A DNA stretch of 64,000 nt from Amphiscolops sp. MND2022 (lineage: Eukaryota), in assembly GCA_964187785.1 (NCBI GenBank), contig OZ076409.1, positions 41,480,001 to 41,544,000 of the forward strand. The letters run 5' to 3'. A program made the translations under genes and the position numbers. The notes beneath the pieces are model-generated. The model had not been told where the DNA came from, searched no databases, and saw only the letters and a program-made list of their open reading frames with translations. Shown here piece after piece: positions 1,480-59,429 of the stretch. Every line of letters begins with the position of its first letter. Position 1 is the first letter of the stretch.

Positions 1480-3892
1480 TTGATTCTCTTTCTGACGATC
1501 ACGCACGCTCTTTTTATACTACTCTCGTTCACAAACATTAATCAAAAGCCCAGTTGAACATCATTATCACGAAACTCTCCTCAATACAAATTGAAATTTT
1601 CCGCCAAAATCAACATTCCTGAAGAAATTAACAACGCTCTACCTAAACTACACCCTTCTCAATCTGCTTGAACTGAAAGTTTCCCAAACCTCACTTCAAC
1701 CTCAAACTTTTTCATTCAAACTCCTAGTCCTTCTGCATAAGTTCTCCGAACCGTAAATTCTAATGTCTGTGTAAATGCATTTTCATGCCCTACCGACAAA
1801 CGTAGAAGCGTGTCGTACACTCTAAATCTCCTTCAAATCCACCGAAATGACATCATAAGCGTACAGTTTCAACACTACACAATATTGTCTTCTTGAAGAA
1901 GCTCACTCTGCTCGAAACTCCTTCTTTTGCTAAATCCTCAAAAATTCTATCAACTATCCTTTTCTTCAATTTTCCTTCATCTCAATATACACAAGACCTC
2001 GAATTAACCAAGGACAACCTCAAAAACAGAATATATTTCTCACATAAAACTCATCTTAAAATCCTAGTTTTATTGTTCCTCCTCATGCACAAGTAACAAG
2101 TCGATGACCGTTCCGAAATTTGAATTCTGAGTAACTGTTTACGAAATTCTTTTTGTCAAAAAAATCTTCTCCTATCAAAACTTATATCTTTTTGTGACAG
2201 TACTATCAGAGAAATTGACAGAAATATCTGTAAGTTATGCAAACAAGGACAATTCTTCTCCTAACCCAGAACTTTAAAATAAATTTTTTCTTAATTTATA
2301 AACAATTCCTCAAAATAGAACACTAACGGCAATTCTCTTCAACTTTTAATGTTTTACGAAACATGAACAGTTCAACAACGTTTTTGGTGTGACCAACGGT
2401 CTTGTTAAGATTGTTTCACAACCCTTTTTTCCATCATAATCTTTGAACTGAATTCGGCACAAATCTAAAAACATAGCGTCGGTTTGGATTTCACAATCAT
2501 TCTGTTTCATTGTAACCCATCCTTCTGGTTGCTTCATTCAAATCGTTGCAAATTCCCTTTCAAAACATTTCTCCTGTTTCTTCACAGAAACCCCCCTGTT
2601 TAGCATTTCAGCAACTCCGACTCTTCTTCTTACTACCTTGACTCACGTACTGCTTACCCGCTCAACAACCAGTTTTCAGATGCCCAGTTAACTTCAGATG
2701 CTGCAACGATGACTCCACCCGTCTCTTCTGTTTTGCCACACGTCCCTTCTATTCTGCCACCGTACCCACTGCTCCAAAACACACTTTCATTTTTGCTCTT
2801 ACTACTTCAACACCCGTCTCCAATTCTAGTTGCAATCATTTCACACGGACTCCGTGTCAAATGATTGCAACTAGAATTGGAGACGGGTGTTGAAGTAGGA
2901 AGAGCAAAAATGAAAGTGTGTTTTGGAGCAGTGGGTACGGTGGCAGAATAGAAGGGACGTGTGGCAAAACAGAAGGGACGTGTGGCAAAACAGAAGAGAC
3001 GGGTGGAGTCATCGTTGCAGCATCTGAAGTTAACTGGGCATCTGAAAACTGGTTGTTGAGCGGGTAAGCAGTACGTGAGTCAGGGTAGTAAGAAGAAGAG
3101 TCGGAGTTGCTGAAAGGCTAAACAGGGGGTTTTCTGTGAAGAAACAGGAGAAATGTTTTGAAAGTCGGACTCCTCCATTGCTACATCAAGATAGCTTCAG
3201 CCTATCCTGAAGCTGGATATATAACGAAGAGAATACAGTTCACGCAGTGGTTTACAAACAAAAACTTAATAATTATCATGAAGCACTCAATTACTATGAA
3301 AAAAATTTAGACTCGTTACTACATAAACGGATCACTGATCTTACTAATATCGCAACAAACTTAACAGAAATTGCCTTTAATCACCAACTGACTTTGTCCT
3401 TGAAATGAACTTTGATTACGCCGCTAACTTACCATTGAAGCGTTTGAACTTCCCATTCACATTTATTTTCGCGAATTGATGCATAAGATTAAAGCTTAGT
3501 TGAAACGAAAACAAAATTCCTAATAAGTTCCTGCCCACGTTTCATGTTTGTCAACATTTTCCCCGTTTAATCAATCAACTTTAATTTCTCATAATTTCAC
3601 AAGGCCACGAAACAACTTTCATTGATGTCAACCATCTGTCCTCTCACTCAAAAACAAAACCCGCTCGAAATCTAAGAAGAAAATGCAATGATGTGAATAA
3701 CAAAATGTTCTTTTCGCATGTAAATCATAAACTTATAACCCTCACACTTATCTTAAATTGACTCTAACCTGAAGCCTTGTTAACCTCAACTCGACCTCCA
3801 TTGAATTGTCTCTAACTCAATATTGCAAATTGCTCGAACTCAACATCAGGAAAGAAATTTAAGAGATACATGAAGAACTATGAGCAACTTAG
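1358..3892 (+). mobile_element. Decayed 3' internal region of a diverged relative of the 18-kb element; probably continues after 21921
   Basis: 1358-1580 translates to YHDSTCPLVVPREALNLSDDFLFPTDILT and LVDSLSDDHARSFYTTLVHKH*SKAQL. These align with YNNTSRPLIVPQEYLIHYDDFLLPCNIPT and LVSSPLDDKDRTYYTALYKQTYSYNEL of the element's post-env ORF. Same G-poor sense strand. Extent beyond ~1600 is inferred from composition only. Confidence 0.6.
2557..3164. repeat. 608-bp near-perfect palindrome (inverted duplication) with 1-nt centre
   Basis: Left arm 2557-2849 (293 bp) is the reverse complement of right arm 2851-3164 (314 bp, including a 21-bp tandem duplication AGAAGGGACGTGTGGCAAAAC), with only a few mismatches. 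Centre is ACACGGA-C-TCCGTGT. Confidence 0.97.
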
Positions 3893-4304
3893 TGAGCTGT
3901 TAAAAAGTGTTGTGGTTGTTTCTTTTAGATGTTTTATTACAGACATAAGAAGTCTAAGATTTTAACAGCAGGGTCGTCTTACTTTTATCTTATAGCTAGC
4001 TAGGTCTGAGTACAATCTATTTCTGAGATCTCAGTTCTTGAAGTGCTGGAGGGAAGACCGATCGTCAGGATGAATTCTCAATTTCTCCGAGTAGATATAT
4101 TCTATTAACTAGGGTAGGTTTCATCAATTAACAATGTGACAGCAACAGGACGAATCTAAGAAGCTTGTTACAGGATATATTAAGTGAAGTTTCTTCTAGA
4201 ATAATTAGCTTTCAAATGAGATTACATTTACTAATTACTTTGGTTAAGAGTTCAGAGTATTTCGGGTTTGTAGAATCTTTGAGGACATGCATCATGGCAT
4301 CACA
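3893..4304 (-). repeat. 3' LTR (412 bp)
   Basis: Direct repeat of 21520-21921. By manual count ~9 substitutions plus one 10-bp indel. Minus strand reads TGTGATGCC...AATAAA...ACAGCTCA. Confidence 0.97.
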
Positions 4305-5365
4305 ATCAACCGGGAATATAAAATTGAAATTACATATGTTCACTTTGGGTTTGAGGAGTTCTAAAAGTTTTTGTTTTGGATGTTATATGCATGGGTTTGT
4401 TTCATATGTGTTGTACTTGAGTTGCATGAGTTTCGTTCTGTAGTGTACTATACTTAAGGAGTGAGAACAAACTAAGACGGTTCGACTTCTTACGTCATAG
4501 ACGATTCAATTGGTGCAAAAAGGTTCAAGTTCTTTCAGTTTCTTTAACTGACAGTTTTCGGTCAAGTTATTGTTGACAACTATTTACTATTTCATGTTTC
4601 TTTTTCGTATCAGCCATCGGCTTGTTTGAAAAAATTTTCATCAGCATGAGTTAGTCAGCATTGAAAGCTTTTCAAGTTGTAGAAGTAAAGCGTGAAGTTG
4701 TCAATGAGTTGTGAACCAACATTGGCGGGTATGTGAACCAAAAGTGAAGAAGTTTCTAAAAGTCAAGGTTGTAGTGAGAGTTCATTTTCAACGAAAGTGA
4801 AGAGTAGAGCAGAAGCAAAAAGTTCAAGAAAGAAAATAACTCTATCAATTGAAGATTTCAAACATTGAAAAACGAGAAGTTACAGTTTTGAAAAGTTCAA
4901 AAGAAAAATTTTGAAAATTTTTGGGGATTGCTTTTGGGAAGTAAAACAAAGTTGTAGAACATGTTTTGTAAAAGAAAAAAATTTTTTCAAAAATCTTAGA
5001 AAATTTCTTGTGCTGCGAGTAGGACTTGTTTTCTGTGAAAGATGGGGATTATAGAATTGTTAAATAGATGTATTATGCACATGACAATGGGGATATAATT
5101 TGGGAAGATATATTTTGAAAAGTTACAAAGATAATTAAAGATACAATTTTGTAAGGATTAAGCAACAGAGGGGGTAATGATAATACGATTATAAAAGATT
5201 AAGATTATGAGAGTATATAGCACTACACTGTATTGGAGTTATAATTTGATTAAATTAGGTTACAATAAGCTACAAGTTATAATTGGTAAAATTGACTGTA
5301 TAGTTCAGTTTGTAATATGACTCAATTTGGATCACATTGTTTGAAGTTTGGAGAAGAGTGTAGTC

Positions 5366-5501
5366 CATTGGAGTGTGAAGACAAGTCAAGAAGTTGACGG
5401 ACATTGGAGTGTGAAGACCAGTGAAGAAGTCGACGGACATTGAAGTGTGAAGACCAGTGAAGAAGTCGACGGACATTGAAGTGTGAAGACCAGTGAAGAA
5501 G
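5366..5501. repeat. 36-bp tandem repeat, ~3.8 copies, in the element's 3' region
   Basis: Unit CATTG(G/A)AGTGTGAAGAC(A/C)AGT(C/G)AAGAAGT(T/C)GACGGA at 5366, 5402, 5438 and 5474. Confidence 0.92.
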
Positions 5502-5743
5502 CAGGTTGAGACGACCAGTGACGAGGACAAGAAGAATGTTGGCAACGTCTGCGAACCCAGAGTGTGGATGGATGATGTTGACCATCGTGTGTGGGTGTAG
5601 TGAAGAATGTCAGCATGTGTAGGAGAAGTCCTTTGGAGGAGTGATCAGCAACCACATTTCAGTGCATCATCGAAGAAAGATGAAGGATTGAAGACGAAAT
5701 GCAGTTGAAGAGTGAAATAAAAGTGAGCAGAAGTTTTTGTAGA

Positions 5744-6195
5744 TTATTGAAACAGAGGATGTTGCGACGGAGGATGAGCTTGGTGTTGAAGCGGGTCATA
5801 TAGTTCTAATTTTTCAGTATACCCGAAATCTTTAAGCATGTTGTTAAAAGCGTCAGTGGCTTCTTGAAGAGCGGTACGGAAGTATTGATCCTTTGAAGTA
5901 AAGGAGGAATATAAGACGAAAACGACATTGGACGCCGTTTCGCAAATCGCAATTTTGGGGCCTTCAAGGTGAATGCGCGAGTATTGATCAAATGTATTTT
6001 TTTCTTCTTTATTTGTGGGACATTGTAAAGGACCTTTAAGAAAGCAATGAGACATTTCGGAGTTATTTCGTTTTTGTTTATTTCGAGCAAGAGTTTAAAT
6101 GCCATGGTGTGGAATATGGCGGCTTTGAGGCTGTGCACGTTTGAGAAATCTGAGGTCATGGTAATAATGTCTTCTGTTTCAGCATTGGGAGCCAT
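5744..6195 (-). pseudogene. Small accessory ORF B (~130-150 aa, unknown function, probably frameshifted)
   Basis: ATG-initiated 129-aa ORF (5806-6195) overlapping a protein-like 103-aa frame (5744-6055), on the element's sense strand. Confidence 0.45.
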
Positions 6196-6365
6196 GGTGA
6201 CAAAGTTCTGAAGATCGTGAAGAGAGAGAGGTGGAAATGTTCTGAAAGAATGCGGATGGAGGAGGAAGAAGAATAGATGTTTCTAAAACAAAAGAAGTGT
6301 AAGAAGAATGTTAATGACAAGTCAAAGGTGTACAACAAAATTGGGTGCTAGAATGTATCATATTC

Positions 6366-6425
6366 AGTTTTGTGCTATACTGTCTTGTATGTCTTAGTTT
6401 TGTGCTATACTGTCTTGTATGTCTT
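6366..6425. repeat. 30-bp perfect tandem duplication
   Basis: AGTTTTGTGCTATACTGTCTTGTATGTCTT twice. Confidence 0.92.
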
Positions 6426-6641
6426 GTAGCGTAGTTTTTTTACATAAATAGTTCTTTTTGACATGTACTATAGGAAAGAAGTATGTACTTTAAAGCTAGT
6501 CCTGAGGTTTCATTCAGAAAGCAAGATATTACTTTGATTAAGTAGGTAAAAATCTAAGTACCTTTGATGTTGTGTCAAAGATGTATCATAGAGTGTACCA
6601 GAGAAGAAAAATTAAGAAATTTGTATTACCTGTATAAGAAT

Positions 6642-8050
6642 TTATTGAAGATTAGTTGAGTTAAAAAGAGTAGTTACAGTTTCCAAAGCAGATTGAATTG
6701 CTTGGGATGATTGAGTAATGCGTTGAGAGTCTAAATCGAGTGTTTGAAGAAGTTTGTGTGTTCGGTCAGAGCAGTGTAGTATATGTGTGAGTGTTGTGAT
6801 AGGTGTTTCAGAGGAGTTTCGTTTATAGGGTTCAAGTAAATTTGTCATGTAGCGAAGTGTTCGGTTATTCAGTACAGAGGAAAGTTTGTAAGGAGCGTTT
6901 TTTATAGGTGAAGAGTGTGATTTATGTTCAGTTTTTTGTTCAGCTTGTACCATAAAAGAAATAGTCTTTGCAGAAATGAAGAGAAGTTCATTGTAGGAAT
7001 ACGTTTGTTTGTAGAGTGCTGTATAGTAAGTTCTATCTTTATCGTCAAGTGGAGAAGATACTAGGAGATGACAGTGAGAGGTTTGACAATTTGAGTTGGA
7101 ATGTTGCAAGGCAACAAAAAGTCATCGTAATGTATGAGGTATTCTTGAGGTACAATAAGTGGACGTGAAGTATTATTGTACGGAAGCAAACAGAAGTATT
7201 GTTTTATAGGGTCAAAGTTTCGAAGATAGCCTGTTATACAAGAGTGGTCAAGAGTGTACATACTGGTCATTGTGAACGGTGATGTATATTTGTAATTGAC
7301 GAAAATGTGATTTTGTGGTTTGGTGTATTGTAGAAATTTAGTATATGTTTGATGATGAGTAATTTTTTGTGAAATAGAAAGGAAAGATGGATCAGATTCA
7401 TCTGTTTTGAGATCGTAGATAGAAGGACGGAGAAAGTTGAATTGTAGAGAAAAAACTTTAACTCCATTATCGAGCCAATATTGGTATGGACCCAATATTT
7501 TGGAGGCAATGGTTGTGAAGAAGTCTTGATTTTTGTCATACAAGCGGAATGAATAATCAGTAGGATGCATATATAGAGAAGTTAGTTGTGCTTTAAAGAC
7601 AAAATCGCCAGTAGAAAGAAGTGGGATCAAATGATCATCGCGATTCGTGCAAATGAAATCTTTGAAGGTATTAAAGGAGGGTATATTGGTGACGAAAGAA
7701 AGATTGGATCTTTCATAATTTCATATCGCTTTTTTGGAGGAGGTGGTGTTGTTTGTGTATGATCATTATCATCTTGTGAAGGAGCAGGTTTTGAATTTTC
7801 GTGTTCAACTTTTGTGTGTTCCGTTTGTTCAAGAAAAGTTGGAGGTGTTTGTTCAGAAGTCTCGATATAGAGAACAGGAGAATCATTTGAAAGAGGTCTA
7901 GTTATAAGATCTGTTGGGGTAGCTTGTTCAAGCTGTGTTTGTAGATCAATTTGTGCTTGTGTCATTGTGTTTAAAGGAAAAACATCAACAGTCACAGTGT
8001 TATCTATTCCAAGAGGCCTTATCACTTTAAAGTGAAAGTACTGTAAATGA
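6642..8050 (-). pseudogene. Post-env accessory ORF A (~470 codons, two frameshifts, unknown function)
   Basis: Three abutting or overlapping ORFs (7627-8025, 7061-7630, 6642-7109). Contains PPPPKKR. Protein-level homologue at 1358-1580. Confidence 0.7.
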
Positions 8051-8236
8051 CACTAACGAGTGGATTTATCAACTTTAGGTGAAGAGTTTTTGAAGATTGC
8101 AATGATTAAAGAGGTGGTATTGGATTGAGGAAGATGATTTTCTGCAAGGGTTTCAAGTGGTGGAGGAGTAGCAATTGTGAAGAGAAGTAGTAGGCAAGTG
8201 TGCTGGAAGAGAGTTTGCAAAAAACTGAGAGAGTGT

Positions 8237-10985
8237 TCAAGAAGATGGAGGAGGAAAAGGATAGTTTATCGGTGAATATATTTTAACTGGTGTATCCGTA
8301 TTGGAGGTGACAGGATTGTTAATTAAAGTGTCATGTTGAGTAGTTAGATTGTCATCCGGATGAAAATTTTTATGAGTATAATTAGGAAGTGGAGGATGTT
8401 GAACAGGAGAGAAAGGAAGTGGAGCTGTTTTTTGGTGAGAATTGTGGTGTCGTTTCAGAAACAAGATATTTTTAGGAAATTGAATTTTGTTAGGACGTTT
8501 AGTATAGAAAGGTGGAGGGGAAGTAACATCGATAGAATGATTAATTAAATTTGTTGAAGTGTCAATAAAATTAACTAAGGATTTGGATTTTAAAAAGGCA
8601 CTTTTGGGTTTTTTGTTTTGAGTCTCATTGAGGACATTGACCATTCGTGCTGTAAGAACATTAAAAAAAAACCATGTGCTATGGAGCTAAAAATGGTAAT
8701 ATTATTTTTTAAATTATATTCAAAAGATATTGTTTTGTAGAGTTTGACAATGAGTGTAAGAGTAGTTTGTACAAAAAGGAATGTAGAAAAGTATATACCA
8801 CCTTGTGTGAGAATATAACAAGGGTATCCAAGAAGTGCAATAAAAGCATCTGAAAACCATGTAGGCGTAAAAAGAGGAGTTAAATTCAAGAGTTTGTCAT
8901 GTAGTCCTATACGTAATGTATTATAAGGATTACCAGAGTCTTGAGGGGAGTCTGCATCATAATTAGGAGTATTAGATGAAATGAAAGAATAGCTAAGAGC
9001 TTTGCCTAGTAATTGAAGTGTAGAATCAAAATGTTTGGAAAATAAAATACGATTCCAAAATTGGTCAAGTTGTGCATTAGAATATATACCAGCATCTTGA
9101 GCTGTAAAGGTGTTAGGACGTATTGTAGTTTTAATTTGTGAAGGTGTAAACATTAGTGGAGGTTTGCGTTTAATAGGTTCAGGTCAAAGAATGTAAAAAT
9201 CTTGATCGTCTGAATCAGGATCTAGTTCAATAATGTTACGCGGATTATTATCACATGTAATTGGTGTAGCATAATCATAAGTTTGTCTTGTAATGGGATC
9301 AACGTACATTAATGTATCTTTAAAATGTATAGGTATACGGTCGAAGCATCTATCAGTTTTATATAAAGGAGATAAAAAAAGAGGACAGTCATAAAGCCAG
9401 GCGGTTGAGCCTTCAACGTATAAGAAATTACTTCAATTATCGGTTAAAAGAAAACCAGCAAGTTGAGGATTTTGCACTGTCATTGCGAGTATTGTAAGAA
9501 GTTGATTTCGTTCTAATTCGCATATGGTATGTAGAGTATTCAGTTCTTGTACTGTCATTGATGTAAAAACATGGTTGATAGTGTAATCTATTTTCGTGTT
9601 TATATGAGCGTCAAAGTCAATGGTAGCAAAATTGTTTGTTACATTTAATGCAGGAAATATAAATTCGTTATTTGAAGTGTCCAATACTATTTTACCAGAA
9701 ATATATTCATCAATCATAGAATGAGGATTGGGTTGTCCTGTATGCATATTGAAACCATCAGTGTATGTAACAAAAAGGTCTGAGTATTGTGTAGAATAAA
9801 GAGGGTCTGGTTTACCACAAAAGTTTTGTGCTGTAGGAAAAACTTCAAATCTTGAAAGACTTGGGTTATTTGGATGTTGTGTATGAGGAGCATAAACATA
9901 GGGATGTTCTGTACCTTTGATACCAGAAGTTGTTTTAGGTTTTATTGAGTGTAGAGAACGTACAAAAGAGTCTGTTTCAATCCAATATCTATCTTCAATT
10001 TTAGTCATACGACCAATGAAATTTTGTAATGTGAAAATTAGGCAATAGTCTTCATTGAACCAAACAAGAGTAAAAGGGGTTTTCCTTGTGGGTTTACAAA
10101 AACCATCTGCAAAATAGCAGGGTAATGTATGTCCATCTATTATCATGTCAATAGATGTGTCATCATAAGTAAGTTCTACTTCGGAAATTTCTAATCGCCA
10201 ACTAACTAGGTTGACTTCGAATTGGTGATGAGCAGGACAGTTATGATAGGGGTTTTGAGTAGGGTCATATATCCAGTTTTTATCGGCGGGCATAAATGTA
10301 AATGTACCTGTGTACATTTTGTTCATATGGTATACAGTGAAAGGAGTTTGATATTGTTCCAATCGTTCTTGAAAATAATGGTCTTCTAAGAGTGTGAAAG
10401 TTTTATTGTAGTGGAGGTTGTTCAATATTTCATCATTTGTACCATTTAAATGTCTTATAATGTTTTTACATTCTAATGGATCACGAGTAACAGGAAGCGG
10501 TAATGTATTATGATTCCATACTGTTCTATCAACACGAGGTATTTTACGGAGCATTGAAAGCATACTTTTCGTTCTTTCTTTGCATAAGCAACACATTTAA
10601 AAGCTTTGATGTGTTTAGTTTTTGCGCGGACATAGACACGGGCTTTAACACTTGCATGTTTAATGTCAGAAGGAGCTTCAGTGCATTGTTTTACATTAAG
10701 TAAATTAAATTGTCTCAAATTGTGTTGTTTTGCACAGTCATAATGAGAAACCATGAGATTTGTAATATTCGGATCATCCGATGGAAGATAGTTTTCTGTG
10801 TCAGAGGGTGTTATATGTATTGAAAAGGTAAAGTTAAATAGGTGTGAATAGAGTATGAGAATTGTTATATATGAAGTTGTAAGGAGTTCAAAAAGAGGTA
10901 GTATAATTAAGACCAGAGTACGGGTTACAGAAGATGATTTCGCCATATATGATAGTAGGTATATTGAGGTCTTGTTCAAAATCAA
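8237..10985 (-). pseudogene. env: Envelope glycoprotein, class III fusion type (chuvirus G / herpesvirus gB-like), ~900 codons, disrupted
   Basis: Hydrophobic leader, then YDC...LLNVKQC, KC...RKVC, CYFADGFC...TLVW...C, FCG...YSTQYSDLFV, HINTKIDY...ICELERNQLLTILAM...NPQLAGFLL, VEGSTAWLYDC, CFDRIPI. Several N-x-S/T sites. Hydrophobic C-terminal segments near 8650-8870 and a P/T-rich tail. Confidence 0.85.
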
Positions 10986-11466
10986 TGTGTATCACTTCAG
11001 AAGGAGCAGGAGAAGTTTTATGTTCTATCTTTGAGACGTGAAACATTGGATGTGGATTTAAACCTTGAAACTTGACTTTTACTTCAAACTTGAGTTCTCG
11101 ATTCGGTGTCTGAAGGCGTTTTAGTTCTGTTTCCTTTCTTTTGTGAGATAAGAGATCGTTATTTGTAATGAAACGTTCTGCAAGGATAGAAAATCAAGGA
11201 TCGTGCTGTGGGTCGTAGATGGTTATACCATCGACACTAAGTGGGTAGTCAGCAAAATTTGGAGTTGGAGGTCTAGATTGATCTGCAGTATAATATTCAG
11301 GTATTCTAATATGTGCGGGGACAGGAGTAGGTATTATAACTTCTGAGAAAAGATTTCCGGAAAGGAATGCAGTCTGAGCGTCTGAGGAAAGTAGAGAAGC
11401 GGTATCAAAACCAGATGTAAAATATGAAGAAGGTATAAAGTCAGAAGAATTTGTTTCAGACGACAA
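10830..11466 (-). pseudogene. ~200-codon reading frame between pol and env (internal stops), unknown function
   Basis: ORF 11194-11466 continues in frame past a stop as FSILAERFITNNDLL...RELKFEVKVKFQGLNPHPMFHVSKIEH...IIYGEIIFCNP and overlaps the env start. Confidence 0.4.
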
Positions 11467-12524
11467 CGGTTGTGCGTGTTGTCGTAGAAGTCTTAAAGTA
11501 GAACTGCTATAAAGAGCAGATAGATTAAGTGTAGAAGTGTCTGTACTAAGTCTTCGTGAAGGAAGATCTCGAAGATTATATCTATGATGTGGTACAAAAA
11601 GTGAGCCTGTTGTATCTTGTGTTGGAATGTATTCTGATGTATTGTCTAAGAGATTTGAGAGTGATGTAGAAGGTTTTCGAAGAGGTTTTAATGGTGGATA
11701 AAGTTTTGAAGGAGTAGTACTAAGATCTGATGGTCTTTTCAGTGAAGGTAATTTTGTATATTCAGTATCAGGGATTTGTACAAGATTGAGCTGAGGTTGT
11801 AGTCTAACAGTTTTGATAGCTGTAGGATGTTTGTAATTTACGTATTGTTCAACACTTTTAGGGTTTGGTTTGTGTACTATAGGAGTGTTAATAGGAGTTT
11901 GTTGAGTACGAGTGTTATAGGTATTTCAGTTATAGGTGGTCTATGATGGAGTGATGAAGATGTTGTTTCAGAAACGTATGATCTTGGTCGTTTAGAAAAG
12001 TAGTAGGAGTTACATTACTAGAGTTTGTAGTGTTTGATACTGAAAATTCAGAAGTAGAAGGAATACTTGGAGGTGATGGAGTTATATCAGAGGAAGAATC
12101 CAGGATTCTTGAAATGTTTTGAACAGGTTATCTTTGAGATAACTTGTTATTGGTTATCTTGCATTCAGCTGTAGTGACTAGTTTCGATAGAGCCAGCGGA
12201 TAGAATGATGGGGTTACAGTTTTGAGGGTGTAATAAAAAGTCTATAATCTAATTTGGGTTGTTGTCGTAGTTAATAAGTAGTTTTAGTAGTTCTGTCATT
12301 TAGAGGAGGAAGTGAAGTTGTTTGGTTATTAGAAGGGTGTCTTGATCTGTCACTAGAGATGTTAGTGTGAGGGGTGTTAATTATATGTTTAAAGAAGGAG
12401 TTGTCATTGGTTGAGGAAGTTAAAGACTTGTCATTGGATGTTGTAGATGGTGTATTTTGATTGGACGTTCTAAATGATGATGGTGTCACAAATGTTTGAG
12501 AATAATTATCCGTTGTGGATGGTG

Positions 12525-15500
12525 TCATGAATGTTTGAGAATCTTCGTCTGATAAGATTCGTCTGAGTTAAAAGGGGAAGAATCACTGTTTGCATATTTG
12601 GTAGGTTGTGGAATTTGGAATTGAGTTGTGCCTGAAAAGCGCATGAAATTACGCAAATGTGGATATAAGAGTGGTTCTTTTGGATAATATGGAATTAAAT
12701 GATTTCTATGAACATGTATTGTAGAGCCATCTTGTGCAAGTAGTTCATATGTAACATCTGATAGTCTGTCAATAATTTTGTATGATCCAATCCGAAGGGG
12801 TTTTAGTTTGTCAGAAAAGTGTACGTGTGTGAAATTGCGTTTTAAAACAAAGGTACCAATAGGAAGGGGTTTACCTTCGTGGTATGTTTTCGTAATGTAT
12901 GCGTGTGAATTGATTTTTCGTAAAATGTTTTCGTATACTGTGGAATAAATTTGTAACATAGCAGTTTCTACGGCGAGAAACCAATGTGGAATGGGTTTTG
13001 AAAGTGTTTTATAAAAAAATGGGTTAAGATCTGATTTATCATAGTGGGAGTGTTCTGGAAGTTGAGAGCAATAGCGCGAAATACATGATTTAGAGGTGTC
13101 TCTGTTAAGATTTAAATCGAACGTAAGGGGGATTCTGGGTCTGGAGTGAAAAACAATTTCATGAGGAGAAATACTGAGTTCTGAAAGTGGTTGTGAATTA
13201 TGTGCATAAGCGTACATATGGACTTGGAATGCCCAATCTTTAGGCGTGTCATGTAAGAACATTCGTAGATGTGTACCAAGGTTTCTGTTTTGTACTTCGA
13301 CAAGGCCATTTGTCCAAGGAGAGTAAGCTGTTCTTGGAGAATGACGAATTCCCATAAGTGTACAAAGGTGTGCCATTTCTTTAGTAACATATTCTGATCC
13401 ACGATCAGTGACAAGATATATAGGTGGTCCAAATTTAATATTCCAATGGTGTAGATAAGTTTTGATAGCAGTCTTTGCGTTGTTTAATTTGATGGGTACT
13501 GTAACAACAAAGTGACTAAAAGCGTCAATTATTACATGTATATATGATTTGTTGTGAGAAGGAGGATTAATAGGTCCTTTAGTGTCCATTGAAATGCGGT
13601 AATTGAAGGATGGAGTTCCTTCTGAAAAGGATTGTGTAGGAGCAGTTTGAAGTTTCATGTTAAAGTGTTTATTGCGTTGACATTCAATACAGTCATGTAT
13701 AAAAATGGAAAGCCATTTTTCAACAAATGGATTGTAGTAATATTGTGTGAATGTGTTATATGTAAGTTTGATGCCTGTATGGGAGTGTTCATGAAGTTTG
13801 TTAAAAACAGTTTTGAAGAGTCGAAATGGAAGACATATTCGAATAGTAGCGCGTACAAAATCTGGAGTGGAAGATTGGTTTAGAGTAGTAGGGTGTTTAG
13901 TATAAAGGCTAATAAGACTTGTGGAATCATCTATTAGAAGTTGTGTAAATCGTTTGTAATAAGCATGTAGAAAAGGAGTGCCAGTGATAAGTGGTGTTAG
14001 AGTCTAAGGTTTTTCATTTTTTTGATACAAGAATAAACAGTTCTAAGAACCGGGTCTTGGGATTGTTGTTGTTGAAGTGTTGTTATGTCTAATGAATAGT
14101 CATCTGGGAGGAAAAACCTTGAAAATAGTTTTTGTACTTAAAACATGATGTATCATAGAAAGGTATAATTTGTGGAGAATGTGTGAGAGATGGTAGATTT
14201 GGTTGTACATTTATTGCAGAAACAGATTTTTGTGTAGTATTTGGGGTTAATTGTTTAAGAGTAGAATAGTTTTCTGTTCGCAATGTTGTGTCATGTAGGA
14301 AAGAAGAGTAAGATTTTGGAATTCTGGTATAGATATGAACTTCGTCATCGCTTGTAACATCAGTATCATTGAGTAAGAGAGATTGTTGATGAAGGGTTTC
14401 ATTGTTTTTTTATAGGTGTTTTGAACTTGGTTTGAAAAGGAGGTATAGATTTGAATGAGAAAGTTTGTAACGGTTTGACAACAATGTCATTTCCTTTATC
14501 ATTGATACGAATAGAGAATTGATATGTACCATAATCAGCGAGAATTGGGTGAGAGTCATGTTTTTGTTGAGGTAAGATTTCTTCATGTTTAATTTAGTAA
14601 TGTACAGGTTTAAGAGTGGTATCTTGTAGAAGTGCAAAATCAATTTGTGGTGAAAGTTGTTTATGTTTTAATTGGTTGATTTGTGATTCAGCTTTTGTAA
14701 AAGAGCGACTTAACATATCGGCAACAGAGAGATTTTTTCCTGGAGTGTGAATAATTTTGAGTTTCGAAAATTTTGTTAGTTGCATTTGAGCTCTATAGAA
14801 ACGAGGACTAAGGTAACCTTTCTTTGTAAAACAATGTAATAAAGGTTTGTGATCAGTAAAAATGTGTATTGGATGGGGAGAACCAATGATAAGAAATTCA
14901 TAAATTTGGAGAGCATGTACTATACCAAGAAGTTCTCTATCAAGTGTGGAGAGTTTTTTTTCTTGTGGGTAAAGTATACGAGAGTTGTACGATATAACTT
15001 TCATTTTGTTTTGTTCATTTAATTGGAATAAGACAGCGCCTAATCCAATAAGGGAAGCGTCAATTGTAATGAAAAATGGATGTTTTGTATTTGGTATTGT
15101 AAGTTCTGTTTCAGAAGTGAAAGACATTTTAAGTTTTTGGAAGAGACTTTCGTGTTCGTCTGTCCATTTCCAAGGAGTGTTCTCATGTAAAAGATCGTAA
15201 AATGGTTTGAGGTTAATATGTAGTTTTTCAATAAATTTGGTGTAAAAATGAGTGCACCAATGAAACTCATCAGAGCGACTTTTCCAGTTGGAGAAGGTAT
15301 TTTATGAATAGCTGCAAGTTTCGAATGGATTGGTTTAATTGTATTGTAACCAATTTCATGTCCAAGAAATTTACCTTTAGGAATCATGAAAAAGGATTTT
15401 CAGGGGCTAGTTTAAGATTGTTTTTCGTACTAATATTGTGTAGTTGTTCGATAAATTGGAACATATGTTCTTTAGAGTCAGGTAAAAGTAATATATCGTC

Positions 15501-17135
15501 TATGTAGACAATAGCAAAACCTTGTTCTATAAGAGTTTTAAAGAAGGTAGACATTTGTTTTGTAAAGAAGTTTGGGAGTCCTTTGAGACCATAAAAGCCT
15601 CGGATGAAAGCGAAAAGTTTATCTCCTGAGGAGAAACTGGTAAGTTTAATAGTGTCTTCATCAAGAGGTGTATGTGCATAGGCATACATAAGATCAATAG
15701 CAGATTTGTACTTTTTGTTTGCGCGTGCTAATTGTGGAGAGAGAGGTTCAATAGGCCAAGATTCATCAGATTGTTTTGCATTGGAGTTAAGATGTCGAGC
15801 GTCTAATACACATTTTATAGTATCTCCCTTGGGGATTATAATGAGAGGGTGTAAATAAGTTGTGACATAAACGGGTTTGTCTTGTGGAGAGGAACCAGTT
15901 TGTTTGATAATGTTATATTTTTCGAGTTCTTTGAGAAGTACATAAAGTTTGTCTCGGTAGTGAATAGGGACTTTAGAAGGACGTTGTGTCATAAGTTGAG
16001 CATTAGGTTTGAGTCGAATACGGAAGGGTGTTGGAATTTTTCCAACATCGTTTTTATGAGTTGCATAACATGTTTTATACTTGAGTAACATATTGCAAAG
16101 AGTAATGTATTCGGTGTCTGTAAGGTGAGAAAATTGGAAGTTAAAATTATTAATTAGATTCAGGTTTTCAGAAATGTATGGTAGAGAAGGAAAAATGCGT
16201 TTTTCGGAAGTATGAGAAGTAGCCTGAACCTTATATAAAGGAGAAGTCTGATTTGGAATGTCATCGTTTGTCATATAAAATTGATGTAAAGAGATTGAGG
16301 AGGAGGGGTTGTGGGATCATCGTACTGTACAATTTAGTTAGTTTGTGGAACTGGTTCAGTGATTTCAGGATGGTAGGTATGAGTAACATTATGTATTAAA
16401 GTGTTAATATCACTATCTTGGAAGAATTTGGGTTTTTCATTAGTAATTGGAACTTCAATGTATCCAATATGTCCTGTAGGTAGTGTTGCAACATGTTTTG
16501 AGGTGTTTTGGATGATAGTTGCACAGATATCTGGTTTGTCATCAGTGAATACTTCAATAAAATTGAAATTTGTACGAAATTTAGTAGCAAAATAGGTATG
16601 AGGTACTGAAGGGAAGAATTGGGTTTGTGGTGTAGTTGTAAAATGGAGGTTATGATAAGTTTTTATTGGAAAGTGTGCAATTTTTGAAGACTTGGGTTTC
16701 AGGCGTATTTGAGTCTTTGAATTAATTCTTTAAATGTAAAAGAAATATGGAGAATCTTTAGATAGGAGTGTTGTGAACTTTGTATAATTTGGGTGTGTTT
16801 TTGATTGGTATTTGAATTCGAGTGTAAAGTCTTTTATGTTTATGTTTTGTATATTATCTTCAAAGCAGGGTGTGCCAAGAATGTTGTATTTTATATCAGC
16901 TACTGCAAAAGGTACTGAAAAGTAACGGGTGTTCTCATCAATAGTAGTGTTCAGAATTATTTTTGCATAGTGTAAAATAGGAACTTCAGTTTGGTTTGCA
17001 ACGGTTAATGTTTTGAATTTCGAGTTGGTCCAACATCGGAAGTGTGATTTGATCTGATATCTAAGAGTTTCGTAAGAGTTATGTATGTTGGGTAGTTTAA
17101 TACAGAAATAGAAGCACCGCTATCTAGAAGGAATG
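12525..17135 (-). pseudogene. pol: Pol: aspartic protease, reverse transcriptase, RNase H, integrase (frameshifted)
   Basis: Protease FLLDSGAS (17116-17124). RT CVLDARHLN, SAIDL, YGLKG, YIDD (15495-15506). RNase H IDAS..GLGAVL, RELLGIV, FTDHKPL. Integrase HEHSH...CIEC, ISMD, VTDRGSEY, NGLVE and a GPY/F-like motif. S/T/P-rich tail continues to ~11500. Confidence 0.95.
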
Positions 17136-20100
17136 CACTTTCCAATCTAGATGGGTTGTCTCTTTGTACTATACTTGATGGTGTATGTACATATAATGTA
17201 TGAAACCAACTTGTAGGTGTGACAGCATTTGCCATTGCTGTTGGGTGATACATGTGCACTTCAAATTTTATTGGGTCAGATTGGTCTTGTTGTTGTATCA
17301 TATTAATTTTGTTTCTAGAATTGGAGTGTGAGCGAGATCTAGAAAATCTAGAGTCTCTTGGTCTTGAAGGTGGTCTGTATGAATTTGTATATTTTGTGAA
17401 TTTGTTGTCTCCGGAATAGGAGCTTGATATGTATCTAGGACGAGAGTTTTGTCGATATGGAGTTCTGTATGAAGATCTGTAAGGAGAACGGTAGGACCGG
17501 GAATCACGTTTGTATGTATCATATCGTGATCTAGAGTAGTGTGGAGGAGTAGTACTTTTATCGTAACTAAATCTATCTCTAGATGTAGAACGGTATCGAT
17601 TTTGTGAATGGTTTTTATTGTAAGAGTTGTCTCTTGAGGTACTTCGACTTCGGTATCGATTGTCATAGTGTTTTGTTCTATCGTTTGAAGGAGAACGGAA
17701 GTATTGTACAAAAGATTTTTGTGGAGATTTAGATCGAGCATATGCTTCTCGTTTATCTTCATCATCTCGTTGTTTTTTGATACAAGCAGAAATGGAGTGA
17801 TTTGTTCTATGACAGTAAGAGCAATATTTCTTATATGCAGGTTTATTTTTGTTATTTGGATCTTTGGGTTGTGTAAACATAAGTTGTTCTTGAGATGAAT
17901 GTTCGAGAGTTTGAGTGTTCAACTGTTTTGTAATTTTGTTAATTTCAAGTGCAAGATCATATGTTCTGATTTTGTCGTTTGCGATATCTTTTGCGTCAAC
18001 AAGTTTTACTAATGTATGAAAAGGAATTGAAGCTTCTAAAACAGTGGAAGTGTGTTTTACTTGTCTTTTGTTTGCAAAGTCTTTAAGATTTTTTGGAAGT
18101 CCTTTTGTAAAGATTTCATTACATTTAAGGTTAATAGTGGATGCATTCTCATCACACCAGCCTTTTTCAACCAGCTGTTGAACTTTGAGTGCAAAATGAC
18201 GTACTGTTTCGTTATCTTTTTTGGTTAAATTAAGGGCTTCAACTTGAGCAAAATAAGCGTTCTTTTGTGAGGAAACTTGTTTTTTTGAAGGCTTGTACAA
18301 AAGCGTGCCAATCATGTTTATAGGTGTCGTTTAAACGAATGTACCAGCTAAGTGCTGTACCTGTCAAAGAGCATTGTATGAAAGCCATGCGACGAGCGTG
18401 CCAAAAGTTATAATCATGTTCTGATGTAGGTTGTAAACCTAAGGAAAATGAAACACGTGCCTCAATATGTTGTAAATATTCTTCAGGTGTATAATTATGA
18501 TCTAGTCCATCAAAAGGTTTAATGGGTTCCGATATAGAAGTAGAAGAGTTAATATATGTTGGTTGTGACATAGTATTATAAGATACAGTAGAGGGCGGTA
18601 TTGTATTGTAAGTAGGATTATTTGAAATATTAGTTAAAGAAGTAGTAGAAGTGTTATGAAAGTGATGGTTGGTTCTAATTGTTGTTGAAGGAGGATTTTG
18701 TATTTGGAATTGGGAAGTTTGTAATATAGGTGTGATTGTATTAGACGTATGTTGAAAAGAAAGAGTATTTAATGGATTGGGTGTGTTCTAATTTATCTGA
18801 GATTGTTGTGTATAACTTGGATTAGTACTAGTGAGACTGTACGATAATGGATTAGTTAATATAGTTTGTAATGGAGATCGGGAAAGATGTCTGGCAGTGG
18901 TATAATTGAAGGATGGGTTGGAATGAATGGTGTTAATATTTAATGTAGGTTGTGTAGTTGGTACTGGGTTAGTTTGAGCTGGAGTATAAGTTGAAGTTTG
19001 TATTTCAGCAGGTGATGGTGGGGTTGGTGTTTGAAAATGTACTGTATGAGTGTTCTGTGTAATATGGTGTGTATTTGATGAGCTTTGTTGAGGAGAATTA
19101 TGGGTGTTTATCTGAGTTGAGAATTGAGGTGGAACAGGAGGTGGATTATAATTTCGAGGAGATGGTACTTGTGTCTGAGAAGATTGTGTAACATTAGTAT
19201 TGGATGTAGATAAAACATAGGTATTGTCTGGATTTGTAGTGAAAAAGTTGTCTTGTTTTTGGTTGTTAAATTCATTTTGTGTAATATTGTGGGTAGGAAT
19301 TATTATAATATTTGAATCATCAGATATTGTAAAGCTTCGTGTATTTTGTACTGTTTCTTCAGAGAATTCCGATGTATCGTGAAATGTAGTTGTTTCAGAC
19401 GGATTTGGCTGTTGTATATCTGAGATTTGTGATAGTGGTGGGTATAGTGGTTGATCTTGAGGATGATCAGAATTTTGAAACAGGTTAGCAAGGGCTTCTT
19501 GTTCTGATTGTTCTGATTGTTGTCTCGTATATAAAGGTTCAACATTAGAGGTTTGTTCTTCAGAAGTTGTTTCAGGAGAAGTATCGGATGTATAAAAAGG
19601 TCTGTTATCTGATGTTTCAGAATGTTCAAGCAAAAAGTTGTGATCTAAGTTCATTTGTTCCAAATGTGTAACATTGAATGATGTAAGATCTCTGTATTGT
19701 AAATGTTTGTTTTCATTTTTGATAATGTATGGTAAATGTTCTATATGTGTTAATTTTTGAGGGAAGTTAATGTAAGCTTTTTGATCTTTTTGTTCCCAAA
19801 GTAATTGATAGTTAAATCTAAGAAACTTTAATAGGAAATGGGTGAGAAATTTTGACTTGAGGTATAGTGTCATCCGTGAGAATAATGTTGTTGAAGAATC
19901 TGTATTGAAAATTTTTCATTTGTAAAATATCTCGTTGTAGCCAATAATAAAGGTTATCATGTCTTTGAACTTTTGTGTCAAGATCAGGGACCTCGAAATA
20001 TTCAGATCTGTGTTTTAGTTCTTGTAGATGAGAAGGACAATAGAGTGGTGTGTTTTGGTTTTCATTGATTTCGATGAGTTTTTGCATATATGTGCGGAAA

Positions 20101-20394
20101 ACATCTTGTATAGAAATAAAATGTCCCAGAGTTTATTCCTTTAACTGGGTTAAAAATAACTTGGAAAGGGGTTTGTGATGATGTTATTTCAAGTGTTTTA
20201 TATCGAATGTAATAAAGATAAGAATCACAATGTTCTCGTGCTTATGGAATAGTATGTATTGTATGGTGTTCTGTTTCAAATGAAAGTGGATTTGTGTTCT
20301 GAAAAATGATGTTATTCAGAAAAGGTGTTACATCTTGTATGAGAGATCGATTTTGTCTTTTTTCTGTATTTAATGTAAATGGAGTAGGAAGCAT
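17136..20394 (-). pseudogene. gag: Gag with long N-terminal extension, capsid domain, CCHC zinc knuckle and RS-rich tract, in frame with protease
   Basis: Capsid-like PIKPFDG...LTGTALSWY...DWHAFVQAF and ETVRHFALKV...FTKGLP. CSYCHRTNHSISAC at 17782-17823. ORF 18788-19873 is in frame with the capsid ORF across one TAG. Confidence 0.88.
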
Positions 20395-20409
20395 TATATG
20401 ATGTAAGAT

Positions 20410-20784
20410 TTAGTTAGTAAAATAAGATTGCCATAAAGGATAGATGTAATGGAAAAGAAGATATTTTGTATTGAATTGTGAATTATATGGTAAGATTTGG
20501 TCTATGAATACAACTTGTAAGAAGATTGTAAGTGCTGTACTTATGAAAAGAAGAAATGGGTTTTGTATATATTGGATAAGCGTATAAAAGGTATGGTAGA
20601 TACTAAGCAGTCCAAAAAGAGGTAGTGCTATACTTCTTAACATAGAAGGAAAAAGTTGTACTTTAAAATTTTGGTATGAACGAAAATAAGAGTTTTTCAA
20701 GAAAAAGTGCACGACCGGCAACAAAGCAATAAAGAACCAAAAGCAGACAATGAGCTTGACTACAATGTCTATTGATGACGGCAT
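20410..20784 (-). CDS. 5' hydrophobic ORF with ~3 predicted transmembrane segments, same frame as the start of gag
   Basis: IVVKLIVCFWFFIALLPVVHFFL, IALPLFGLLSIYHTFYTLI, FLLFISTALTIFLQVVFI. Its TAA is 5 codons upstream of the in-frame ATG at 20394. Confidence 0.55.
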   Translation of the reverse strand: MPSSIDIVVKLIVCFWFFIALLPVVHFFLKNSYFRSYQNFKVQLFPSMLRSIALPLFGLLSIYHTFYTLIQYIQNPFLLFISTALTIFLQVVFIDQILPYNSQFNTKYLLFHYIYPLWQSYFTN

Positions 20785-21193
20785 GTACAATAGAGTTCAA
20801 TTAAGAGTGTGTCAAAGAGGTTGTATAAAAGTGTATTATATAAATGTAGGAAAAATAAAGTTTAATAGATTTGTTATAAATTTTAATTGTTATGTATTTG
20901 TTATGTATTTGGATCCGTAAACTTGTTTTGAAAGAGTTTTGTATGATGTTTGTACTATAGAAGAGAGAGAAAGAAAAGTGTTATAATGGTGTTATGTAAA
21001 AAATATATGTTATATAGGTGTGCCAACTTTAAAGTTGACCCTAGCGGCTAGAACCAAAGAATTGTTTACTAGCAGGTATCGCTGGATAGCACTGTAGAAG
21101 GGCCAACACGTATCGCACGTCTGCGGTTGGAACGGAAGAAAGAGAGAAAGCCAACACGAATTCACTCAGAGGTGATTGGAACGAAAAATTTTT

Positions 21194-21325
21194 ACTGGCA
21201 GGAATTACGCGAATAAACGAAGTCAGAACCAAGAAATATGACTGACAGGAATTACGTTGAGAAACGCAGTCAGAACCAAGAAATGTAACTGACAGGAATT
21301 ACGTGAGGAGACGTAATCAGAACCA
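21194..21325. repeat. 47-bp degenerate tandem repeat (3 copies) in the element's 5' leader
   Basis: ACTG(G/A)CAGGAATTACG...TCAGAACCA at 21194, 21241 and 21288. Confidence 0.85.
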
Positions 21326-21504
21326 TAGCAACACGAATCAATTTCTAGTGGAAATTGGTTGCAACGATGAAGTTAATAACGGTAGGCTATATTGAGAGGT
21401 GGAGAAACTGTGTGTCGAACAAAGAGATATCGGATGAGAAAGTCGAGAAAAAGTGTACAACAATTGTAGAGGTGTGAAATGAATGGGAGAGAAAGAAGAA
21501 TTTT

Positions 21505-21517
21505 CTTGGTCGCACCA
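21505..21517 (-). promoter_or_regulatory. Putative primer-binding site TGGTGCGACCAAG
   Basis: TGG starts 2 nt after the 5' LTR's CA end. Cognate tRNA not determined (TGGTGC resembles Gly/His acceptor ends). Confidence 0.75.
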
Positions 21518-21519
21518 AT

Positions 21520-21921
21520 TGAGCTGTTAAAAAGTGTTGTGGTTGTTTCTTTTAGATGTTTTATTACAGACATAAGAAGTCTAAGATTTTAACAGCAGGG
21601 TCGTCTTTCTTTTATCTCATAGCTAAGTACAATCTATTTCTGAGATCTCAGTTCTTGAAGTGCTGGAGGGAAGACCAGTCGTCAGGATGAATTCTCAATT
21701 TCTCCGAGTAGATATATTCTATTAACTAGGGTAGGTTTCATCAATTAACAAGGTGACAGCAACAGGATGAATCTAAGAAGCTTGTTACAGGATTTATTAA
21801 GTGAAGTTTCTTCTAGAATAATTAGCTTTCAAATGACATTACATTTACTAATTACTTTGGTTAAGAGTTCAGAGTATTTCGGATTTGTAGAATCTTTGAG
21901 GACATGCATCATGGCATCACA
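21520..21921 (-). repeat. 5' LTR (402 bp)
   Basis: Matches 3893-4304; adjacent to the PBS; TG...CA ends. Confidence 0.97.
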
Positions 21922-59256: not shown

Positions 59257-59429
59257 TAGTCGAGTAACTAAATAGTCAAGTGATGGAGCGTGGATATTTG
59301 GCAGAGTTTGGAGAAAAACGCAACACAGTTGATTATTTTCCTCCCCATTGAAAATGTGGGTCGGAAAATAATAAAAAATAGGAATACTTGTAATGGGATA
59401 ACGGTTTATACCATTTCACTCCTTGAAGA

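Follow-up and report, generated by a model that had tools for sequence, protein, structure and literature searches.

What the extra DNA of an 18-kb LTR retrotransposon encodes, and how its genes could be expressed, is the question raised by a locus in the genome of Amphiscolops sp. MND2022 (assembly GCA_964187785.1). The locus lies in a window of 64,000 nt (contig OZ076409.1, positions 41,480,001 to 41,544,000), which is the whole stretch of DNA that was analysed. An earlier note on this DNA had described a giant, recently active and possibly infectious Ty3/Gypsy element with env and accessory genes of its own. The following features define its ends.

3893..21921, minus strand: whole element, a Ty3/gypsy LTR element of ~18 kb
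21922..21925, no strand: right target-site duplication TTAG, identical on both sides
3889..3892, no strand: left target-site duplication TTAG
21520..21921, minus strand: 5' LTR, 402 nt, TG...CA ends
3893..4304, minus strand: 3' LTR, 412 nt, TG...CA ends
21507..21517, minus strand: primer-binding site (PBS), 11 nt, 2 nt inside the 5' LTR
4305..4320, minus strand: polypurine-tract position, not purine-rich, with an A-run/CCCGG-type motif common to all lineages

Alignment of the two LTRs gave 97.8% identity (393 matches, 9 substitutions and 10 gap columns), and with the 4-bp duplication TTAG and the tRNA-Met-type PBS this bears out the ~98% identity, duplication and PBS reported earlier. The 11 nt of the PBS are the complement of the 3' end, CCA included, of a host tRNA-Met(CAT) gene; a gene called as tRNA-Val(TAC) fits equally. 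No purine tract was found before the 3' LTR, either at 4305..4320 or in the sister lineages inspected, and the plus-strand primer is presumably atypical. The Ty3/gypsy domain order Gag-PR-RT-RNase H-IN is present. Ty3 gave the best match of the reverse transcriptase (E 5e-36); caulimoviral, foamy and other retroviral enzymes ranked behind it, and a Pfam search of the element proteins returned no BEL/Pao matches. LTRs, duplication, domains and RT match thus confirm a Ty3/Gypsy element of ~18 kb at this position. Its anatomy shows that replication follows the ordinary route of tRNA-primed reverse transcription and integrase.

Between the LTRs, we assigned the following features.

21194..21325, minus strand: leader tandem repeats of 47 nt, likewise seen in family B
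20662..20784, minus strand: uORF1, 39-48 aa with a single hydrophobic helix, AUG context weak, end only approximate since the frame continues into uORF2 in the window copy
20410..20643, minus strand: uORF2, 77-78 aa, hydrophobic, weak AUG context
12214..20394, minus strand: gag-pol, one frame of ~2,700 codons, frame end ~12214-12217, broken in the window copy
10888..12103, minus strand: ORF X, between pol and env, CUG at 12103-12101, broken in the window copy
8237..10946, minus strand: env, ~910 aa, Monjiviricetes (chuvirus-like) fusion glycoprotein family PF24664, broken in the window copy
6642..7965, minus strand: ORF A, 430-500 aa, soluble, no known family, broken in the window copy
5744..6195, minus strand: ORF B, ~150 aa, conservation limited to families A and B
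5366..5501, no strand: 36-nt tandem repeat in the 3' region

The window copy is defective, and every long frame in it is broken. Compared with single natural frames in other copies, its gag-pol aligns in 10 pieces, its env, X and ORF A in three pieces each and its ORF B in two, with in-frame stops. The gag-pol frame, 2,695 codons long in family B, encodes in order a 640-aa N-terminal extension, Gag (PF03732, with a CCHC knuckle), a protease motif, RT, RNase H, integrase and SH3. Pfam matches were PF03732, PF00078, PF17917/9, PF17921 and PF00665; the protease has a DSG motif without a Pfam match, and the spacer between RNase H and integrase is long (~325 aa). A dUTPase-like segment between protease and RT was unsupported when checked. 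Gag-Pol had been put at ~3,000 codons. It really comprises ~2,700, and a further ~410 codons belong to the separate ORF X in another frame. Since X had been merged into pol, the most unusual feature of the element was missed.

Both env and the post-env ORFs A and B were found as claimed. The env gene is a separate ORF after pol, at a distance of 1.3-1.7 kb that contains ORF X, and it matched PF24664 at 41.9 and 80.5 bits (cut-off 27). The tie of this chuvirus-type env to the gB fold is taken from Chary and Hayashi (PMC13524379). A furin site (R-x-K/R-R) was absent from the two env proteins inspected, the C-terminal anchor was below the hydropathy cut-off of 1.6, and there was no PDB sequence match. 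Env might serve as a fusogen for cell-to-cell spread. For ORF A we obtained no Pfam family, nothing below E 0.14 in a PDB profile search and no usable match in the ESM Atlas. A Tudor/SH3-like barrel suspected by eye in ORF A was unsupported; the AlphaFold2 models reached a pLDDT of only 35.5 and 39.1. A weak search with a single pattern did not detect ORF A among metagenome or viral contigs. One relative of ORF A shares no more than 44-50% identity with the copies in this genome, a hint that the layout exists in other animals as well. Its product might be a soluble core factor of the lineage. ORF B has no Pfam family either, and its position, the last slot, is filled by other proteins in C and D; it might hold exchangeable host-modulating cargo.

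The extra regions recur in other copies. Eight of nine other LTR pairs were colinear with the window element, extra regions included; the ninth (L011) has a different, family-D-like interior and was left out of the colinearity count. Four sister lineages of 17.8-19.0 kb share a core of gag-pol, X, env and ORF A, have LTRs 98.8-100% identical and also show 4-bp target-site duplications. Their layout was kept in all elements studied (6/6 in B, 6/6 in C and 6/6 in D, one D element carrying a nested insertion). These copies were chosen as the top matches to an open ORF A, so the sample is biased towards young, whole copies. Between lineages, X and ORF A share only 37-45% identity, and the gene order is unchanged. 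The dN/dS values (A-B and C1-C2, respectively) were 0.10 and 0.09 for pol, 0.13 and 0.09 for env, 0.14 and 0.09 for X, 0.14 and 0.06 for ORF A, 0.32 and 0.11 for uORF1, and 0.19 and 0.20 for uORF2. These ratios indicate that the extra genes are under purifying selection. A complex element with its own accessory genes, as proposed before, is thus upheld by other copies, by four sister lineages and by selection. Recent activity is supported for the group by the near-identical sister LTRs and by 1,801 exact LTR-PBS junctions in the assembly, but not for the decayed window copy.

In the leader, the proposed 5' membrane ORF resolves into a pair of small hydrophobic frames. An ORF of 124 aa is peculiar to the window copy. 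The first ORF has 40 aa in seven of eight other family-A leaders and 32 aa in the remaining one; it is followed by a distinct second ORF, of 77 aa in four of the eight. Two small conserved ORFs precede gag in families A, B and C, whereas family D has a different leader ORF of 60 aa. The products of uORF1 and uORF2 might be membrane microproteins.

ORF X begins 65-350 nt downstream of the pol stop, in another frame, and has 405-446 codons across lineages. It consists of an S/P/T-rich N-terminal part and a conserved C-terminal part of ~180 aa. Methionine is absent from it in all five lineages. Instead, X appears to start at an in-frame CUG, flanked by A (-3) and G (+4) in every one of 27 sites (26 elements), which amount to ~3-5 independent observations because the five lineages share one ancestor. 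CUG is rare in pol (1/233, 1/218, 2/217 and 3/119 Leu codons; ~1%) and occurs in none of 38 Leu-Asp pairs. In B and C1, an in-frame stop 18-21 nt upstream of the CUG closes X, with no AG in between, and protein similarity of X between lineages begins at the CUG.

Out-of-frame AUGs in X were fewer than expected across the five lineages (observed/expected: 3/7.2, 3/6.7, 0/6.3, 1/7.8 and 2/7.6; p = 0.05, 0.066, 0.001, 0.002 and 0.007, in the same order). The depletion is clear in C1, C2 and D and borderline in A and B; in B, the 3' portion of X lacks it (3 vs 4.5, p = 0.29). For ORF A and ORF B, the same test showed no such shortage of AUGs (p = 0.43-0.97). The AUGs that remain in X open frames of only 1-16 codons, and one C1 copy has 1,667 nt without any AUG. 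C2 and D do have several AUGs in the stretch from the pol stop to the CUG. No stem-loop was found downstream of the CUG (z from -1.45 to +1.34); a stem-loop at ~14 nt enhances such initiation and is not required. A conserved near-cognate codon, A or G at -3, G at +4 and AUG depletion are hallmarks of non-AUG initiation with leaky scanning (PMC3542737). The best reading of these data, we infer, is that X is a CUG-initiated ORF with leaky scanning onward to env. X itself has no Pfam family and no PDB profile match, and its C-terminus had no usable match in the ESM Atlas. Its product might be a mostly disordered protein that is regulatory at low dose or associated with the particle.

From this arrangement, the genes of the element appear to be expressed by ribosome scanning. 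Gag would be reached by ribosomes that leak past the two weak-context membrane uORFs or reinitiate after them. Where ribosomes enter an RNA directly behind pol, some of them would start X at the strong-context CUG. With a start of X at CUG and not at AUG, the remaining ribosomes would be able to read on, scanning ~1.2-1.4 kb of AUG-poor X to the env AUG. One message would thus set a low ratio of X to Env. Entry after pol could come about by splicing, an internal promoter or reinitiation, with splicing as our first guess.

Splicing could, however, account for X in another way. X may be a spliced or trans-spliced exon that takes its AUG from an upstream exon or leader, with env on its own spliced RNA and the conserved motif serving as an RNA signal. 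In its favour, the sense strand is rich in pyrimidines, and the spacer between pol and X contains acceptor-like sequences in several lineages; spliced env is the rule in Drosophila errantiviruses. Among invertebrates with LTR-rich genomes, at least one subjects 30% of its genes to spliced-leader trans-splicing (PMC9911081). The missing AG between stop and CUG in B and C1 and the onset of protein similarity at the CUG nevertheless argue against an exon boundary there, and splicing alone does not predict the loss of out-of-frame AUGs within X. We therefore consider a spliced exon unlikely, though a serious alternative. Recoding by readthrough or frameshift, which would make X a C-terminal extension of Gag-Pol in line with the earlier figure of ~3,000 codons, suits the position of X directly behind pol and would need no Met start. 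But the different frame, the distance of X from the pol stop and the stops in the X frame of the spacer all oppose it, and it leaves the conserved rare CUG unexplained, so that we regard it as very improbable.

Two further explanations concern the element as a whole. The heavily broken window copy, and the lack of a known family for any of the extra proteins, could suggest that the extra regions are insertions nested in an ordinary gag-pol-env element, or passenger DNA that codes for nothing. Collecting other genomic copies, as the earlier note had proposed, spoke against this: the extra regions were kept in eight of nine pairs and the gene order persisted at 37-45% identity with dN/dS of 0.06-0.14. 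Such an origin is contradicted for X, ORF A and the uORFs and is conceivable only for the 3' repeat region; for the extra regions at large its probability is close to negligible. The family could also be listed already with all these genes, for instance in Repbase or Dfam, leaving only annotation detail as new. It has thousands of copies, and public assemblies already include its proteins, as predictions without a name. Yet none of the 86 cluster members inspected is named, our literature searches found no description, and the survey in PMC13524379 left out regions >10 kb and LTR pairs >14 kb apart. Prior cataloguing is thus rather improbable, if less so than recoding. We return to the reading of a CUG-initiated X within a stable gene set and compare it with known systems.

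The claim of an undescribed system was too strong, given gB-env gypsy elements (PMC13524379), Burro (PMC6431247) and the small ORFs before gag in the MDG1 group (PMC11952523). Ty3/gypsy elements with gB-type env are described as widespread in animals (Chary and Hayashi, PMC13524379). The 'ancient errantiviruses' of that survey resemble the window element in Ty3/gypsy pol, gag-pol-env order, chuvirus-like glycoprotein, LTRs, tRNA PBS, multicopy state and recent expansion. They differ in their three-ORF layout of ≤10 kb, whereas the window element has 18 kb, X between pol and env, and ORFs on both sides. Neither 'accessory' nor 'splic' occurs in the main text of that paper. The survey kept elements of ≤10 kb with a pol-env gap of ≤1 kb and LTR pairs ≤14 kb apart; multi-gene members longer than 10 kb therefore could not appear in it. 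Judged by its sequence, our element is of the gB-env errantivirus-like kind, beyond the size filter of the one broad survey that we found. Insect errantiviruses of the Drosophila gypsy type have instead an F-type env with a furin site.

Burro/GYPSM1, a giant planarian gypsy element, is similar in its size, thousands of copies, env homology and extra domains or accessory ORFs, and it carries a MATH/TRAF domain, as does family F of the genome studied here (PMC6431247). However, Burro exceeds 30 kb and has env and extras in one polyprotein of ~4,900 aa rather than in separate ORFs (PMC6431247), and BIR, BCL2 and ankyrin matches were absent from the window element proteins. The Drosophila MDG1 group also has two small conserved ORFs before gag (sORF1 and sORF2), at least one encoding a membrane protein, but lacks env; sORF2 has a basic patch or tail and often an N-myristoylation motif, both absent from uORF1 and uORF2 (PMC11952523). 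Rice tungro bacilliform virus has a strong-context non-AUG start and an 895-nt AUG-free stretch leading to a downstream ORF, and allexiviruses have a conserved CUG with A at -3 and G at +4 and leaky scanning (PMC3542737). These are plant viruses, whereas in the present case the predicted arrangement belongs to an LTR retrotransposon of an animal, in the stretch from pol to env. Literature searches found no case in print of env expression by a CUG start and leaky scanning in an LTR retrotransposon. Anakin-type BEL/Pao elements have likewise captured a chuvirus glycoprotein but have a BEL/Pao pol (PMC7642597), and rotifer LTR elements carry extra ORF3 types, though as a single enzymatic or env ORF3 (PMC5408684).

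Taken together, the element is probably one decayed member of a Ty3/gypsy (Metaviridae-like) LTR lineage of high copy number, in which a chuvirus/gB-type env is combined with a stable complement of about five conserved genes beyond the usual ones, the last slot being variable, and whose genes would be expressed by scanning. Across deep splits, the lineage has kept several accessory genes under purifying selection and nevertheless reached 1,800 copies or more. Both X and ORF A represent conserved families of proteins for which Pfam, PDB and the ESM Atlas gave no match. The signature of CUG start and leaky scanning is a testable prediction of how env could be expressed without a dedicated AUG leader. 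More tentatively, and with the odds in our view against it, an old and still-spreading invertebrate Ty3/gypsy lineage may have independently reached a complex-retrovirus organisation, with ~8 genes, a bicistronic message on which X starts at CUG and env follows, microproteins of the membrane, a slot for exchangeable cargo and spread between cells as enveloped particles. If this is true, size filters have hidden such elements, which may be common. Other env families in the same genome carry different cargo, including a captured TRAF-like gene. A genome with such varied env-family cargo would be a natural system for the passage from a simple retrotransposon to a complex retrovirus-like element.

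The element under study, a Ty3/gypsy LTR element of family A with a gB-type (chuvirus-like) env, was delimited in the window by its LTR pair and flanking duplication.

3893-21921, minus strand: the element

In a pairwise alignment, the LTRs (412 and 402 nt) were 97.8% identical, with 9 substitutions and 10 gap columns, and TTAG is present on either side as a 4-bp duplication. The primer-binding site (PBS) begins 2 nt inward from the 5′ LTR and agrees over its 11 nt with the 3′ end of a tRNA-Met(CAT) gene of the host. These termini agree with the earlier note, which had reported LTRs about 98% identical, a 4-bp target-site duplication and a PBS. A gene called tRNA-Val(TAC) gives the same match, but Met is the likelier primer because in a distant family of this genome the match to the Met gene extends to ~18 nt. 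A purine tract ahead of the 3′ LTR was not found in the window copy; a non-purine motif at the polypurine-tract position (4305-4320) is common to all six lineages. The long frames are all on the minus strand, which is the sense strand and contains very little G across 3893-21921 (6-15%); the resulting GC skew of 0.25-0.5 stops at the element borders. The window copy is defective: in alignment, gag-pol is broken into 10 pieces and ORF B into 2, while each of env, X and ORF A falls into 3.

Pfam detected Gag, RT, RNase H, integrase and SH3 in the window copy, which is the Ty3/gypsy order, and the best match of the RT among solved structures was Ty3. The env claimed previously was borne out, as three fragments in the window copy match PF24664 and the intact natural env frames of other copies exceed the cut-off of that family. 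The Gag-Pol of roughly 3,000 codons was not: gag-pol is one frame, with 2,695 codons in family B, where two of six elements have it open. In the window copy it ends at position 12217, and the ~410 codons that come after it belong to a gene of their own, ORF X. Gag also carries an extension.

20394-18480, minus strand: N-terminal extension of Gag, ~640 aa

It had no Pfam match. Families A, B and C appear to share its first ~200 aa, which are different in D.

We searched the 1.07-Gb assembly for further copies. Of 2,837 candidates from the LTR search, 40 were scored, and all 40 were close to full length. The exact LTR-PBS junction common to families A and B occurred 1,801 times (control: 0). Of nine other LTR pairs examined, eight enclosed sequence that runs colinear with the window copy (90-96% identity) apart from a duplication and some scattered deletions, and the ninth had a different interior. 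The extra regions are therefore not nested insertions, and the accessory genes proposed in the earlier note withstand this test. Nesting is common in the genome, with D-like pieces inside or beside A and C copies and one D copy interrupted by another retroelement with long ORFs (loci L011, L049 and L065-L066).

Sister lineages were found through homologues of ORF A. The B, C and D elements were the top matches to open ORF A frames, so that this sample leans towards young copies: six of B (17.8-17.9 kb, LTRs 98.8-100% identical), six of C1 and C2 together (18.2-19.0 kb, 99.4-100%) and six of D (18.0-18.5 kb, 99.6-100%), five of the latter with an LTR pair and one split by a nested element. In RT-RNase H, A is 83-89% identical to B, D 77% and C 72%, and the gene order gag-pol, X, env, ORF A, last slot is the same in all lineages. 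For pairs of single natural copies (A-B/C1-C2), dN/dS by the Nei-Gojobori method was 0.14/0.09 for X and 0.14/0.06 for ORF A, compared with 0.13/0.09 for env and 0.10/0.09 for pol; the leader frames gave 0.32/0.11 (uORF1) and 0.19/0.20 (uORF2). In more distant pairs, X and ORF A reached 0.23-0.63, with synonymous sites near saturation. The selection on X, ORF A, both uORFs and ORF B shows that the element needs the proteins they encode. Its anatomy shows an LTR retrotransposon that has copied itself recently and often: a tRNA primes reverse transcription, and integration duplicates 4 bp.

ORF X lies 65-350 nt downstream of the pol stop in a different frame. Simple readthrough or frameshifting from pol is ruled out by this frame change and by the stops of the X frame in the spacer. 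X contains no Met residue in any lineage. Every lineage has a CUG in the X frame, flanked by A at -3 and G at +4, which was present at 9/9 sites in A (eight elements including the window copy, one carrying the site twice) and at 6/6 each in B, C and D, counts that are not independent, the lineages being related. Retention of Leu does not account for the conserved CUG, since in pol only 0.4-2.5% of the Leu codons are CUG, and CUG was used in 0 of 38 Leu-Asp pairs. Protein similarity of X between lineages starts at the CUG codon, and the DNA 5′ of it is dissimilar among A, B, C and D. Compared with codon shuffles, out-of-frame AUGs in X were fewer than expected (C1, 0 vs 6.3; C2, 1 vs 7.8; D, 2 vs 7.6), the deficit being borderline in A (3 vs 7.2) and B (3 vs 6.7 in the 5′ 356 codons) and absent from the 3′ part of X in family B (p 0.29). 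The leftover AUGs open frames of 1-16 codons only, and in one C1 copy an AUG-free run of 1,667 nt ends at the env start. There was no deficit in ORF A and ORF B or in the Gag N-terminus, which is as low-complexity as X (14 vs 10.4 expected). A hairpin downstream of the CUG was not found. Strong context, a conserved CUG and AUG-free scanned ORFs are described as marks of non-AUG initiation with leaky scanning in the available text of a review whose examples are rice tungro bacilliform virus and allexiviruses (PMC3542737). We consider it probable that X initiates at the CUG and that env is reached on the same RNA: ribosomes would start X at this strong-context codon, and the remaining ones would scan past X by leaky scanning to the env start. 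The weak AUG deficit in A and B, the missing hairpin and the kinship of the lineages speak against this reading.

Ser, Pro and Thr make up 35-40% of X, whose C-terminal part is conserved. It has a Tyr-x-Leu-Arg/Gln basic motif, which may resemble the chromatin-binding motif of foamy virus Gag. Searches of Pfam, PDB profiles and the ESM Atlas returned no function for X or ORF A, whose homologues are unnamed predictions in public assemblies.

The 5′ membrane ORF of the earlier note stands as hydrophobic leader coding but not as a single ORF, its 124 aa being uORF1 and uORF2 fused in the window copy. uORF1 (39-48 aa) has one hydrophobic helix and a motif pattern shared by A, B and C; uORF2 has 77-78 aa. 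The C leader holds a third small hydrophobic ORF, and the D leader a different ORF of 60 aa. In A, B and C a pyrimidine occupies position -3 of uORF1 and of uORF2; the gag start has an A there in families A and B, not in C. At the other end, ORF B is 61% identical between A and B and 64% between C1 and C2 but is not conserved between these groups, and D has two other ORFs in its place; the last slot thus holds variable cargo. ORF A and ORF B have strong AUG contexts, each behind an AUG-free gap of roughly 320-510 nt, an arrangement compatible with reinitiation or with separate RNAs.

Two more distant env families, E and F (RT 45% identical), lack homologues of X and ORF A and carry other ORFs 3′ of env.

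L078:5404-6975 (scaffold C7 of G000, the assembly), minus strand: family E post-env ORF, 524 aa
L084:6013-7164 (scaffold C1), minus strand: family F TRAF/MATH ORF, PF21355

Family E is 12.3 kb long, and its single post-env ORF belongs to no known family. Family F (18.8-19.5 kb, LTRs of 2.1-2.4 kb, 100% identical) has a 1,168-nt AUG-free stretch without a long ORF ahead of env; its coiled-coil and TRAF/MATH ORF (E 5e-23) may be an immune-signalling adaptor that was captured. Cargo behind env and AUG-free stretches leading up to env therefore recur in this genome. Several short, mutually similar-looking ORFs also lie between pol and env in family F.

Other features were noted in passing. Locus L103 (scaffold C12, 35.59-35.66 Mb) holds tRNA-Met(CAT) genes in a long tandem array, and they were six of seven genes in a 3-kb sample; many of the 508 tRNA pattern matches fall in it. 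In the window, long open plus-strand frames at 25156-26118, 35815-36477 and 38915-40543 mark a probable host gene, the first with a NERD nuclease-related domain scoring at the cut-off. A 1.67-kb unit is repeated in three tandem copies, 98-99% identical (41600-46550), and direct duplications of 1.26 kb (53132-55874) and 3.5 kb (56205-61772) contain RT fragments that look LINE-like by eye. A near-perfect palindrome of ~600 nt (2557-3164; arms 204 nt, 98%) has 21-nt repeats. A 223-codon frame (808-1479) and a 49-nt stretch 28 kb off (28890-28938) that matches the start of this frame in inverted orientation are remnants of another repeat family flanking the element on both sides.

Elements with a gB-env of the errantivirus kind occur across animals (Chary and Hayashi, PMC13524379). 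As far as its available text goes, that survey left out regions >10 kb and LTR pairs >14 kb apart and did not have Xenacoelomorpha among the groups searched; a keyword check of seven of its supplementary files gave no match. Planarians have giant gypsy elements with env, and fish have foamy-like ERVs of 17 kb that carry accessory ORFs (PMC6431247, available text); paired small ORFs upstream of gag, like uORF1 and uORF2, are known from the MDG1 group (PMC11952523, likewise). In the literature covered, which included few subscription papers, neither this layout nor a gene between pol and env that starts at CUG was found described. The earlier observation is partly confirmed, and the actual gene set is more unusual than reported. 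In its workings the element resembles a gB-env errantivirus, and it may be a member of that clade. Env might mediate cell-to-cell spread, and it is conceivable, though doubtful, that these elements represent an infectious metavirus lineage of a complex-retrovirus-like kind.
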